DNA of 64,000 bases from Escherichia coli (GTDB lineage Bacteria > Pseudomonadota > Gammaproteobacteria > Enterobacterales > Enterobacteriaceae), in NCBI RefSeq assembly GCF_009931435.1, contig NZ_CP043414.1. One strand, given 5' to 3'. Shown piece by piece: positions 3,286-6,983 of this stretch; the stretch's first letter is position 1, and each line of letters opens with the position of its first letter. The position numbers were made by a program, and so were the translations under genes. The notes under the pieces were generated by a model, which worked only from the letters and a program-made list of their open reading frames with translations, had not been told where the DNA came from and did not search any database.

Positions 3286-3306
3286 ATAAATGGTGTCCCC
3301 TGCAGA
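3286..3306. repeat. 21-bp direct repeat of the argW 3' end (distal attachment-site remnant)
   Basis: GATAAATGGTGTCCCCTGCAG is identical to 6963-6983, which overlaps the 3' end of tRNA-Arg. Confidence 0.8.
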
Positions 3307-3378
3307 CATCTACTTGAGGCGGCAGGGGATTGATTGGAATGGTGTTTTTTAGATGTGAGAAATATTTTACCCGCTATT

Positions 3379-3579
3379 TTACCCATTGGCGCGGCTTAAG
3401 AGCTTATTTTTGAATTCACAATGGTCACGATATAACCATCTTGCTCGCCCGTGGATAACTTTGGCTTTTGGCAGGTCGCCGGACTTAATCCGGTCATAGA
3501 TGAAGGTTTTACCGAAGCCAGTATCGGCCATGATGAATTTCAAATCAACCAGTGAATCAGGTTGTAGTTCGTGTTGCAT
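3379..3579 (-). CDS. alpA: AlpA-family prophage regulatory protein (excisionase-like DNA-binding protein)
   Basis: 66-aa ORF MQHELQPDSLVDLKFIMADTGFGKTFIYDRIKSGDLPKAKVIHGRARW resembles AlpA/Xis-type HTH proteins of P4-like islands. Confidence 0.7.
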   Translation of the reverse strand: MQHELQPDSLVDLKFIMADTGFGKTFIYDRIKSGDLPKAKVIHGRARWLYRDHCEFKNKLLSRANG

Positions 3580-3598
3580 GAGTGCTATCTCCGAATAG

Positions 3599-3614
3599 GG
3601 AATCGAACCTGCAA
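3599..3614. repeat. 16-bp fragment identical to the argW T-arm region (second att-like remnant)
   Basis: GGAATCGAACCTGCAA matches 6983-6998 inside argW exactly. Confidence 0.5.
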
Positions 3615-3624
3615 ATCAGGCAAT

Positions 3625-3644
3625 AAAAAACCGCATTGATGCGG
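3625..3644 (-). terminator. Rho-independent terminator downstream of the 114-aa ORF
   Basis: Hairpin CCGCA-ttga-TGCGG followed by a T-run on the minus strand. Confidence 0.45.
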
Positions 3645-3703
3645 CAATGGTAGGTCTGGATATCTTGAGAAATGAACGGGCCTCATCGAGTGTGAGGCTG
3701 TGG

Positions 3704-4048
3704 TTAGTCCTTGCGTAACTCGCTAATTCTTCTGTAAGTCTCTGGTGCTTTGTTTCCGTGTATCTTCATTTCAGACTTCAACAGAGCAACGAGAGAATCC
3801 CATTCGTTGAGGATGCCTTTGAATGCCGGAACGCGCTTTGCAACCTTGTCGAATGAATCCCTGATTTCTGGAATCTGCTCGACAAGCGCAACGCATCGTC
3901 GGAAATCGGCTGCGTCATGTGGAGCACCGAAGCTATGACCATAGATATTCTTTTTCAGTCCACATGCGATTGAGGCAAGAGTTGCGCTACTGATGCCAAC
4001 ATCGCCAGTCGATTGCCATTTCAAAACCTTCATAGCCAAATCTGACAT
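3704..4048 (-). CDS. Hypothetical protein, 114 aa, island cargo, no recognisable domain
   Basis: ORF with GGAGA Shine-Dalgarno 6 nt upstream of ATG; terminator hairpin downstream; no motif recognised. Confidence 0.55.
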   Translation of the reverse strand: MSDLAMKVLKWQSTGDVGISSATLASIACGLKKNIYGHSFGAPHDAADFRRCVALVEQIPEIRDSFDKVAKRVPAFKGILNEWDSLVALLKSEMKIHGNKAPETYRRISELRKD

Positions 4049-4075
4049 TTCTTGTCTCCAATAAAAAAACCGCCA

Positions 4076-4243
4076 TCAGGCGGCTTGGTGTTCTTTCAGT
4101 TCTTCAATTCGAATATTGGTTATGTCTGCATGTGCTATCTGCGCCCATATTATCCAGTGGTCATAGCAGTCGTTGATGTTCTCTGCTTCGATAACCCTGT
4201 TGAATGGCTCTCCATTCCATTCTCCTGTGACTCGGAAGTGCAT
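4076..4243 (-). CDS. Hypothetical small acidic protein, 55 aa (MHFRVTGEWNGEPFNRVIEAEN...)
   Basis: Below the ORF-track size cutoff; GGAG Shine-Dalgarno 7 nt upstream; TGA stop lies in the loop of a hairpin followed by T7; directly upstream of the 114-aa ORF. Confidence 0.35.
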   Translation of the reverse strand: MHFRVTGEWNGEPFNRVIEAENINDCYDHWIIWAQIAHADITNIRIEELKEHQAA

Positions 4244-4293
4244 TTATCATCTCCATAAAACAAAACTCGCCGTAGCGAGTTCAGATAAAAGAA

Positions 4294-4313
4294 ATCCCCG
4301 CGAGGGCGGGGAT
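4294..4313 (-). terminator. Rho-independent terminator downstream of the PACE-family gene
   Basis: 8-bp stem ATCCCCGC/GCGGGGAT with 4-nt loop, T-rich tract following on the minus strand. Confidence 0.5.
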
Positions 4314-4385
4314 GTTAAGTCGGTGGGGGTACAGTATGGATATCGAAAATTATTGCGCGATTCTCATTACTCCCCTGGGAAAACA

Positions 4386-4844
4386 TTATCTGGCAAGCAT
4401 ACGTTGTTGATGCTGTTTCACAACACGTAAACGTAAGCTGTCATAGGCCCAATTGTAGAACATGGTATATGGTAGAAAGAAAAGGAAGAATCCTATCTCT
4501 AGTGTAAAAGCCTGTAACAGACTGACGCTCAGAATCCAGGACACCATAATGACGCCGATCGCGATAAATCCACTTTCAAAGCCCAAAGCATGGAATGCAC
4601 GAACTTTTGCAGTTCGTTTTACCTGATGAGCAGGCCAGTAGCGATCAAATAGCATGTTATAGATGATATTCCAGATCATTGCAGTTGAAGCCAACAAGAT
4701 AGTCATCCCGCCCATTTCGAGTATAGTTCGCTGCATTAACCATGCTGTGGTGGGGGCCAGAATCGCAGTGGCAATTCCTTCAAAGCAAATAGCGTGAAAA
4801 ATACGCTCAAGTAACGATCTGTGTTGAATCGCATTATGTTGCAT
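4386..4844 (-). CDS. PACE-family (AceI-like) small multidrug/biocide efflux protein
   Basis: 152-aa ORF with four TM helices carrying the duplicated motifs: RIFHAICFEG, MIWNIIYNMLFD, RAFHALGFESG, YTMFYNWAYD. Confidence 0.7.
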   Translation of the reverse strand: MQHNAIQHRSLLERIFHAICFEGIATAILAPTTAWLMQRTILEMGGMTILLASTAMIWNIIYNMLFDRYWPAHQVKRTAKVRAFHALGFESGFIAIGVIMVSWILSVSLLQAFTLEIGFFLFFLPYTMFYNWAYDSLRLRVVKQHQQRMLAR

Positions 4845-4947
4845 AACTTACCTTTCTTACAGTTTCGACCGCGTTATGGAGTTGTGAGATTTTTATCGAT
4901 TTATGTGATATATAAAAGATAGATACCATCGAAAAAATTGATAGATT

Positions 4948-5832
4948 ATGCGTTACTCACTTGAAGCGTTAAGTACATTTGTTGAAGTGGTTTCCTGTGG
5001 CTCCTTTTCTGCTGCGGCACGAAGATTACGTAAAAGTCAGTCCGCAGTCAGTACGTCAATTGCCAATCTTGAGGTCGATCTTGGTATAACATTATTCGAT
5101 CGCTCTTCGCGAGAACCTGTGCTGACAGAGGAAGGAAAGAAAGTATTGAGTTACGTTCATGCGATTTTATCAGCCAGTGAACGTCTTGAGGAGGTGGCGG
5201 TTTCGCTTGCCGGAGAGACTGAAGCTCGTCTGACGTTTGTGCTTTCCGATACCCTACACCCTGACTTATTAGAAGACATCATGGTGCAGTTTGATAGTCA
5301 GTTTCCACATACTGAGTTAGAGGTTTTAATTGGTGAGGATGTCGATGTCATCGATCTTTTGCAAAAAGAACGAGCGCAGATCGGCTTAATTGAGTCTCGG
5401 GAACACTACCCCACCGATATTGGCTCAACCCGTTTACCGATGCAAGCGTGGATGGGCATTTATGTTTCGGCGTCACATCCACTGTCTGCAGAAAAAACAA
5501 TCCAGCGGGAACAACTTCATTCATGGCGAGAACTTCGTCTTAATACTTATATCGATAACCGGGAGATGATTGCCCGTGGACCGGTTTGGTCTGCACCTAA
5601 CTATTTGTTGTTACTCAGTATGGCCGTACAGGGATTTGGCTGGTGCTCTCTGCCCTGTGCTCTGGTTGAGGAGTTTGCAACAGAAAAACCGCTGGTTCAG
5701 CTCGACGTACCTGGCTGGCCAAAGGCAATTTCTATCGATCTGCTTTGGAATAAAAAATCGCCACCAGGCGCGGCTGGAAATTGGCTTAAGCATCATTTAC
5801 AGCATATCAATGCCCCAAATAGTCGAACTTAG
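4948..5832 (+). CDS. LysR-family transcriptional regulator, divergent from the PACE gene
   Basis: 294-aa ORF; N-terminal HTH FVEVVSCGSFSAAARRLRKSQSAVSTSIANLE typical of LysR regulators. Confidence 0.8.
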   Translation: MRYSLEALSTFVEVVSCGSFSAAARRLRKSQSAVSTSIANLEVDLGITLFDRSSREPVLTEEGKKVLSYVHAILSASERLEEVAVSLAGETEARLTFVLSDTLHPDLLEDIMVQFDSQFPHTELEVLIGEDVDVIDLLQKERAQIGLIESREHYPTDIGSTRLPMQAWMGIYVSASHPLSAEKTIQREQLHSWRELRLNTYIDNREMIARGPVWSAPNYLLLLSMAVQGFGWCSLPCALVEEFATEKPLVQLDVPGWPKAISIDLLWNKKSPPGAAGNWLKHHLQHINAPNSRT

Positions 5833-5953
5833 ATTAGTTAAAATATGGAATCCTGAAATAATCTCTGTTGATATGTGGAGCCATCTTCCAGGCTCCCACC
5901 TAAATCATGTTAGCAGTTCCATTTTTTTGATGATTTCCGCATGAGCATCATCG

Positions 5954-6037
5954 TTATCCCCAGCGACAAATTGAATACAAAACCAGTGCTACCGCCATTG
6001 CAATTCCTACCGTTGCGAATGCTTCAGGCCAGCTCAT
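5954..6037 (-). CDS. Putative 27-aa hydrophobic mini-protein (MSWPEAFATVGIAMAVALVLYSICRWG)
   Basis: AGGAGG 7 nt upstream of ATG; single predicted TM segment; lies in a decayed region so may be a gene fragment. Confidence 0.2.
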   Translation of the reverse strand: MSWPEAFATVGIAMAVALVLYSICRWG

Positions 6038-6137
6038 TGATTCACCTCCTGCGCGGTTCTGGTAGTGGTATCCAGAACAAGGCGTTCCCTAACCACGATA
6101 AAGTGCCGTCGCTCAACTCCACGTATTCCCCTTGCAC

Positions 6138-6365
6138 CTATCCTGCCATATACTCACCGTGCTTTGAATAAATTAAAATCCAATCATCTTGAGCGGGCAT
6201 TCGCTCACTACAGCGTATCCAACCACCCGGAGTTACCGGAGAGTTGCCGCGTTCTTTAATGTGCAAGCGAGGCTCACCATCTTTTGGTTCAGGCCACTGG
6301 CGCTCCATGTTGATCTTCAATTTATCTTCCTGTAGTGGCTCGCTCCATTGCACCGCGATCTTCAA
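6138..6365 (-). pseudogene. DUF551-like prophage protein fragment
   Basis: C-terminal GGWIRCSERMPAQDDWILIY resembles the W-I-x-x-x-E-R-x-P motif of DUF551 phage proteins; truncated, overlaps the integrase remnant out of frame. Confidence 0.3.
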
Positions 6366-6808
6366 ATCTGCGGATTACTTCCAGCAGTTGCATCGGCTCA
6401 ATATCCTGAATCTCAAGACCGCCGATGATGGGTAAAATGTCGTCATCAAACATTTTGGCAAGTTCAGTTGCATAGCCTACTGACCAGACTTGCTTCTTGT
6501 GCTCGTACCATTCCTTGTAAATCGCACTAAATGAATTGTTGTTAGACGAAGCCTTTTTCGCCTTTACCGGATCGATGCCAACCGAGATGTCTTTCCTCGC
6601 AGTCCATGCCTTATCCCTTGCCTCCTGCAAAGTCATAAGCGGATATTTTCCGACAGTCAGGATTTTCTCCTTACCGTCAATCTTGTAGCGAAGCTGCCAT
6701 ACCTATTTCCCGGATACAGGGACATAAAGGTACAGGCCATTACCATCGAGAAGGCGGTATGGTTTTTCTTTCGGCTTAGCTGCTTCAATCTGCTTAACGG
6801 TGAGCATG
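6322..6808 (-). pseudogene. P4-type tyrosine integrase, N-terminal remnant interrupted by a stop/frameshift, catalytic domain missing
   Basis: MLTVKQIEAAKPKEKPYRLLDGNGLYLYVPVSGK then stop; continues in another frame as ...WQLRYKIDGKEKILTVGKYPLMTLQEARDKAW..., typical of the integrase N-terminal domain next to a tRNA. Confidence 0.6.
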
Positions 6809-6962
6809 GGTAAAAATCCGGTGGGTAAAATTATTTTATCCACTTTTTACCCGTCATGGAGTGCGGCTGTCAACGATCTGACGCGAACCATGACGAACTG
6901 TTAATCTACGGAAGACTTGATATTCAGGGGATTTTACGGACTGGTACGGATGGGAGCGAACT

Positions 6963-6983
6963 GATAAATGGTGTCCCCTGCAG
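6963..6983. repeat. 21-bp att repeat overlapping the argW 3' end (proximal copy)
   Basis: Identical to 3286-3306. Confidence 0.8.

Follow-up and report, generated by a model that had tools for sequence, protein, structure and literature searches.

A probable lambdoid prophage remnant carrying a PACE/LysR gene pair at argW in Escherichia coli

The DNA considered here is a 64-kb window of Escherichia coli (64,000 nucleotides of contig NZ_CP043414.1, assembly GCF_009931435.1; hereafter the window), and our subject is the ~3.7-kb interval beside argW, which ARAGORN identifies as the sole tRNA gene in the window. Between two copies of a short direct repeat, the interval holds the gene torI, two small open reading frames (ORFs), a gene for a PACE-family efflux transporter paired with a LysR-family regulator gene, a fragment of a dATP/dGTP pyrophosphohydrolase gene and a fragment of the integrase gene intS (Table 1). 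A first-pass annotation, made from the sequence alone, had described a decayed integrative island, and much of its inventory stands. The LysR/PACE pair and the two small ORFs (114 and 55 aa) are present, and the fragment that it called DUF551-like matches the end of the dATP-dGTP_PPHyd domain and the start of DUF551. The small regulator that it took to be AlpA-like is instead the excisionase TorI, identical at 66 of 66 residues to both K-12 TorI and HK620 HkaC and matching PDB entry 1Z4H ('Tor inhibition protein') over all 66 residues (E=6.6e-43), whereas its match to Pfam Phage_AlpA is not significant (E=0.16; HTH_17 E=0.011).

Table 1. Features of the argW interval, with positions in the window
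Feature	Position	Strand	Evidence or remark
Distal att copy (attR in KplE1 naming)	3285..3305	+	16-nt core ATGGTGTCCCCTGCAG plus 5 further identical bases, GATAA; exact repeat
attR arm (P' arm), core to torI	3306..3378		Gapless against HK620 attP; 2 differences from K-12 KplE1 within 90 bp of the core start
torI, excisionase/recombination directionality factor and TorR inhibitor, intact	3379..3579	-	66 aa; phrog_66 excisionase
16-nt copy of the argW T-arm, GGAATCGAACCTGCAA	3599..3614	+	20 nt upstream of the torI start codon
Early-left phage ORF, 114 aa	3704..4048	-	phrog_1229, E=1.9e-51; HK022 gene 32 homologue
Early-left phage ORF, 55 aa	4076..4243	-	phrog_676, E=2.1e-38; covered by N7 and HK022 homology
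Moron, 1.7-kb insertion with PACE and LysR genes	4318..6040		Absent from related phages N7, HK022 and Combat2C1
PACE-family efflux transporter, 152 aa, intact	4386..4844	-	NCBIfam NF033665, 205.6 bits (cut-off 165)
LysR-family regulator, 294 aa, intact, divergent from the PACE gene	4948..5832	+	Best NCBIfam model AceR
dATP/dGTP pyrophosphohydrolase + DUF551 gene, 3' fragment, frameshifted	6034..6330	-	Pfam dATP-dGTP_PPHyd 68-96 of 97, DUF551 1-21 of 68
Deletion junction	6331..6335		5 bases assignable to neither parent
intS', codons 1-157 of IntS	6336..6807	-	TAA at codon 35 (6703-6705 on the + strand); no catalytic domain
attL arm (P arm), overlapping the intS promoter region	6808..6962		330/340 identical to K-12 attL
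Proximal att copy (attL core), overlapping the argW 3' end	6963..6983	+	Exact repeat and ARAGORN tRNA position
argW, tRNA-Arg(CCT), intact	6969..7043	-	ARAGORN; Rfam tRNA, 63.4 bits

The repeat that bounds the interval is the 21-mer GATAAATGGTGTCCCCTGCAG, which occurs exactly twice in the window, both times on the plus strand and with up to 3 mismatches tolerated, and not once in 100 shuffles. The first-pass annotation had correctly reported two exact copies, one of them overlapping argW, but placed the left copy one base too far right (3286-3306 rather than 3285-3305). The right copy spans the final 15 nt of argW, including CCA, and 6 nt past the CCA end. The K-12 prophage KplE1 (CPS-53) has a published 16-nt att core, CTGCAGGGGACACCAT (PMC2951348), whose reverse complement falls within the repeat, and the HK620 record annotates the identical 16 bases as its attP core. 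Insertion at the argW 3' end with a duplicated 16-nt core, which characterises the recombination module of KplE1, HK620 and Sf6, is therefore found here with both copies present.

Uninterrupted argW sites carry the sequence only once. In C51 and O158:H23, argW comes immediately after cscB and there is a single copy of the tRNA 3' end; the six bases past the tRNA read GGTATC. A synthetic empty site, assembled from the flanks of the window itself and used as a query on complete genomes, is matched perfectly (99/99) by at least 19 of them, with the exact 21-bp allele present once. Strain 10, inspected among these, has cscB and argW adjacent with no insert, and its flanks are 99.3-99.8% identical to the window, compared with 92-96% for the GTATC haplotype. 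Empty sites thus come in two alleles immediately past the tRNA (window 3280-3290 and 6958-6968), each on its own flank haplotype: GGATAAA, which equals the phage P arm and gives 21 bp of attB/attP identity, and GGGTATC, which gives 15-16 bp. The repeat here is 21 rather than 16 bp long because the native attB allele of this haplotype (GATAAA) equals the phage attP at that position, whereas in K-12 and in strain Rb-50 only 16-17 bp are shared. We considered the 21-bp length as a special feature in its own right and rejected it; it is the 16-nt core plus five bases that match by virtue of the attB allele of the flank haplotype.

Joining the right junction of the window (6300-6983) in silico to the left junction (3306 onward) rebuilds an attP that aligns without a single gap over 988 bp to HK620 (96.7% identity) and to phage N7 (97.3%), from the int N-terminus through attP to the xis gene. 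In both phages all 21 bases form one contiguous stretch of attP. The att arms are likewise conserved relative to KplE1, as expected of this module, with 344 of 360 positions identical on the attR side and 96-97% identity overall. A promoter-like site lies within the attL arm (6857-6830, minus strand), and the published PintS promoter overlaps attL (PMC2951348). The published core within the repeat, the collinear attP of HK620 and N7 and the single-copy empty sites together establish site-specific integration into argW, as the first-pass annotation had proposed. The idea that the repeat arose as an ordinary or chance duplication with no link to integration, for which only its shortness speaks, is refuted by the same observations and by the absence of the repeat from shuffled sequence, and we give it practically no weight; nor is the repeat doubled in strains that lack the insert, an outcome that would have pointed to such a duplication.

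The integrase is dead. Aligned to residues 1-157 of K-12 IntS, an experimentally studied integrase, the intS remnant is identical at 156 of 157 positions, the sole difference being a stop codon in place of K35. The first-pass annotation had described an integrase broken by a stop or frameshift and lacking its catalytic domain; the stop and the lost domain are both confirmed, whereas no frameshift was found in the remnant, only the one in-frame TAA and the truncation. In the full-length IntS of Rb-50, Pfam places Arm-DNA-bind_3 at residues 2-86, Phage_int_M at 93-188 and Phage_integrase at 199-365; as the remnant ends at residue 157, the entire catalytic domain has been lost. The remnant matches NCBIfam PRK09692 and the phrog_1 integrase, and the integrase-like ORFs are clearly fragments of a tyrosine recombinase. 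Of the parts of the KplE1/HK620/Sf6 module, the TorI-type excisionase beside attR is therefore in place, while a functional IntS beside attL is missing.

The origin of this arrangement is indicated by E. coli Rb-50, in which a 46.5-kb lambdoid prophage lies between the same att copies at argW. The comparison across E. coli genomes that the first-pass annotation had called for thus yielded both an empty site, in strain 10, and a near-complete relative. The Rb-50 prophage opens with torI, followed by the two small ORFs (114 and 55 aa), the PACE/LysR pair and a dATP/dGTP-pyrophosphohydrolase gene that is intact; it continues with ea22, exo-bet-gam, kil, a cI-like repressor gene, replication genes O and P, the nin region and Q, and it ends with lysis genes, lambda-type terminase, head and tail genes, and intS beside argW. 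Positions 3289-6330 of the window correspond to Rb-50 1523170-1526212 at 99.8% identity, and positions 6336-7600 to Rb-50 1569022-1570286 at 96.3%. The two collinear segments are separated by a single gap of 42,810 bp, and therefore one deletion of this length turns an Rb-50-like prophage into the element in the window. At the junction, intS codon 157 is fused to what remains of the pyrophosphohydrolase/DUF551 gene, its 3' part; the 5' part was lost to the deletion, and the fragment is a PGAP pseudogene in strain 2013C-4282. We found no immunity, replication, lysis or virion genes between the att copies of the window, all of these lying within the deleted segment.

The same junction is rare. 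A 47-mer spanning it is found in 2013C-4282, and the whole configuration occurs in only three of 5426 complete E. coli genomes (2013C-4282, R32_14_1F and RMDEC465; 99.0-99.7% identity), always at argW and with csc flanks. Taken together, these data make it very probable that the interval is the remnant of a KplE1/HK620-type lambdoid prophage at argW, produced by one ~42.8-kb deletion and collinear at both ends with a full-length prophage at the same site. The immobilised remnant with retained cargo that the first-pass annotation envisaged is borne out, the integrase being dead and the cargo genes intact, and its generic decayed island can be refined to the product of a single deletion in a lambdoid prophage.

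Several observations weigh against this reading or restrict it. Identity to Rb-50 drops from 99.8% on the torI side to 96.3% on the intS side, and therefore Rb-50 is a close cousin rather than the direct parent. The five junction bases (6331-6335) match neither parent. The Rb-50 prophage has annotated pseudogenes, namely a frameshifted small-terminase gene and an S49 peptidase gene with a stop, and may itself be defective; a demonstrably viable carrier phage was not found.

A different view is that the interval is a purpose-built, small, mobilisable island, similar to a satellite, in which att sites, excisionase and cargo rely on the IntS of a helper phage of the HK620/Sf6 type. The full conservation of attL, attR and torI and the intact cargo genes fit such an island, as does the finding that in K-12 expression of torI is enough for excision of KplE1 if IntS is present (PMC3509656). 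However, the fusion of two truncated genes at the junction bears the stamp of an accidental deletion, and the interval encodes nothing for packaging or replication. The configuration is confined to three of the complete genomes and always to this locus with csc flanks, and the same cargo resides in full-size prophages. We therefore regard a satellite-like island as improbable and retain the deleted prophage as the explanation of the interval.

The resemblance to KplE1 is close in architecture. Both elements occupy argW with the same 16-nt core, both have intS beside attL and the tRNA gene and torI beside attR, and both are deletion remnants (PMC2951348). KplE1, which is excised in vivo upon TorI expression (PMC2951348, PMC3509656), differs in that it measures 10.2 kb, retains an intact IntS and is excisable, whereas the element described here measures 3.7 kb and its IntS is cut at codon 157 and stopped at codon 35. 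The interiors are unrelated: KplE1 carries yfdG-yfdT, including O-antigen modification genes, while the window has early-left ORFs and the PACE/LysR pair. HK620, Sf6 and N7 (Lederbergvirus) share attP, the int N-terminus and xis (hkaC) with the window over the 988-bp alignment, but are P22-like podoviruses without the PACE/LysR insertion, whereas the relative in Rb-50 has lambda-type head, tail and recombination genes.

We propose the following history. A temperate lambdoid phage entered the argW 3' end by means of a recombination module of the KplE1/HK620/Sf6 type, in which IntS lies beside attL and the tRNA and TorI beside attR, and IntS-mediated recombination of attP with attB duplicated the shared sequence (the 16-nt core, or 21 nt on this attB allele). 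Later, a single deletion of ~42.8 kb, with one end within the early-left pyrophosphohydrolase/DUF551 gene and the other at intS codon 157, took with it the recombination, immunity, replication, lysis, head and tail genes. The nonsense mutation at intS codon 35 may have arisen after the deletion or before it. What is left are both att sites, torI, the two small early-left ORFs and a PACE/LysR moron that was already in the phage. The remnant is immobile on its own because it has no recombinase; because attL, attR and TorI are intact, the IntS of a related phage could excise it in trans. TorI could also still damp the Tor response by inhibiting TorR.

The PACE and LysR genes form a discrete unit. 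Homology to the cargo-free N7, HK022 and Combat2C1 prophage breaks off at position 4317 and picks up again at 6041 in N7 and Combat2C1 and at 6196 in HK022 and HK620, and in N7 the two flanks are ~35 bp apart; the segment between them (Table 1) is therefore a moron. The PACE protein contains two Pfam BTP domains (PF05232; residues 9-71, E=2e-22, and 77-140, E=2e-21) and passes NF033664 (169.8 bits, cut-off 80), while it fails the AceI equivalog model (93 bits, cut-off 180). The LysR protein scores 130 bits against the AceR equivalog cut-off of 500, and many other LysR models also match it; judged by these profile scores, it is a member of the LysR family and not an AceR equivalog. The pair thus resembles AceI/AceR of Acinetobacter baumannii, the prototype PACE pump and regulator, in combining a small two-BTP protein with a divergent LysR-type regulator, but both members score below the equivalog cut-offs. 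The pair is also phage-borne, whereas PACE genes are typically found in core genomes (PMC6195760). Hassan et al. 2015 (PMC4337561) carried out assays on a PACE protein from E. coli, ECTW07793_0407, which may or may not be the protein encoded here.

The 103-bp divergent intergenic region of the pair contains a TATC-N9-GATA dyad (4894-4910), which is a candidate LysR-type operator. Promoter-like sites in the moron are only of consensus level, and the hairpins resembling terminators that follow the PACE gene (4313-4263) are part of the shared backbone. The pair is presumably expressed and useful to the host. The Rb-50 prophage additionally holds an emrE SMR-family efflux gene, an alpha/beta hydrolase gene and a porin gene (L005 31067-32501, 34908-36005); with emrE and the PACE gene, two small efflux pumps therefore reside in one prophage.

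The block is found beyond the argW remnants. It occurs in 13 of the 5426 complete E. coli genomes (~0.24%), always on the chromosome and at >99.5% identity, and in all six carrier loci inspected it takes the same backbone position in the early-left region of a lambdoid prophage. The integration modules of these prophages differ: the IntS/TorI module at argW accompanies the block in Rb-50, in 24A16CRGN010, whose locus is interrupted by IS elements, and in the deletion remnant of 2013C-4282; an HK022-type int/xis module beside torS does so in VCSW7; and a P22-type int module at thrW does so in 377323_2f and 2015C-4136CT1. Judging by match spans, three LR7781xx genomes resemble VCSW7 and two more genomes resemble the thrW pair, while R32_14_1F and RMDEC465, the other two deletion remnants, align as one piece over the junction. 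Four prophage-type contigs in IMG/VR carry the pair, all in a thrW-type context, and its protein cluster includes members from E. albertii. No plasmid matched the pair at more than 73% identity, and no sequenced phage isolate was found to carry it, the sole match in the phage collection being a Salmonella chromosomal contig at 72%. Outside Escherichia, the pair is most closely related to chromosomal pairs of Salmonella (STM3021/STM3020, 72% nucleotide identity), Enterobacter and Klebsiella.

This distribution bears on whether the pair might have been inserted into the remnant after the prophage had decayed, independently of any phage. The want of phage homologues outside Escherichia prophages, with the nearest relatives being the Salmonella chromosomal genes, would suit a late arrival. 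Yet a near-complete argW prophage has a block more than 99.5% identical between the same pair of backbone genes, and the block has the same position in HK022-type and thrW-type prophages, so that a late insertion is already contradicted and is, in our judgement, very unlikely. The cargo came with the phage. As to its wider movement, we lean slightly towards the view that lambdoid temperate phages are the vehicle by which PACE genes and their LysR regulator move among Escherichia; our literature search found no paper that combines PACE efflux with a prophage or moron.

The remaining features of the recombination module concern its inner edge. The 16-nt argW T-arm sequence GGAATCGAACCTGCAA has only two copies in the window, the one upstream of torI and one in argW directly after the core (6983-6998), and none in the shuffles. 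The copy upstream of torI is unchanged in K-12, HK620 and N7. A related motif, GGGAATCGAACCTG, is arranged as a tandem pair in Erwinia phage Midgardsormr38, and a variant occurs in Salmonella phage g341c. The copy upstream of torI may be a relic of an ancestral attP with a longer block of tRNA homology, or it may be a conserved element that binds a protein or acts as a promoter, and the tandem Erwinia copies may fit a binding site at least as well as an attP relic. Of the early-left ORFs, the 114-aa ORF has no Pfam domain.

The left side of the interval is adjoined by csc sucrose genes (window 1-2855), namely the 3' end of cscA, cscK (622-1536) and cscB (1608-2855). The argW-dsd/csc segment is a known variable region, and the prophages of Rb-50 and K-12 are flanked by dsdC instead. 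Between cscB and the left att copy, and thus outside the interval bounded by the 21-bp repeat, lies a stop-broken C-terminal fragment (2935-3141, minus strand) that is annotated as DUF4942 in other strains and looks like a trace of an older element integrated at the argW hot spot. On the other side, the argW-yfdC flank (6984-8051) is ~96% identical to most genomes and 99.9% identical to 2013C-4282, while for the purF-cvpA stretch (43000-47000) the best match among complete E. coli genomes is 98.8%, indicating a somewhat divergent chromosome; this pattern suggests either that the haplotype is rare or that recombination in the flanks has spread the region. Elsewhere in the window there are two tandem arrays of the REP type with three repeats each (29567-29833 and 42678-42930; Rfam naRNA4, 78.9-81.8 bits).

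Both the integration system and the argW/dsd/csc hot spot are well documented, and the island itself adds little to them. It does provide a clean example of prophage decay, in which one deletion accounts for the remnant and can be read against both an empty site on this haplotype and a full-length relative at argW. With TorI and both att sites in place, the remnant could interfere with incoming phages of the HK620/Sf6 type or be excised by them. The one mildly new element is the possible role of lambdoid prophages as vehicles of PACE genes, whose mobilisation in E. coli is unexplained in the open literature; if this role is real, the survival of an intact PACE/LysR pair in an otherwise stripped prophage would hint at a benefit to the host.

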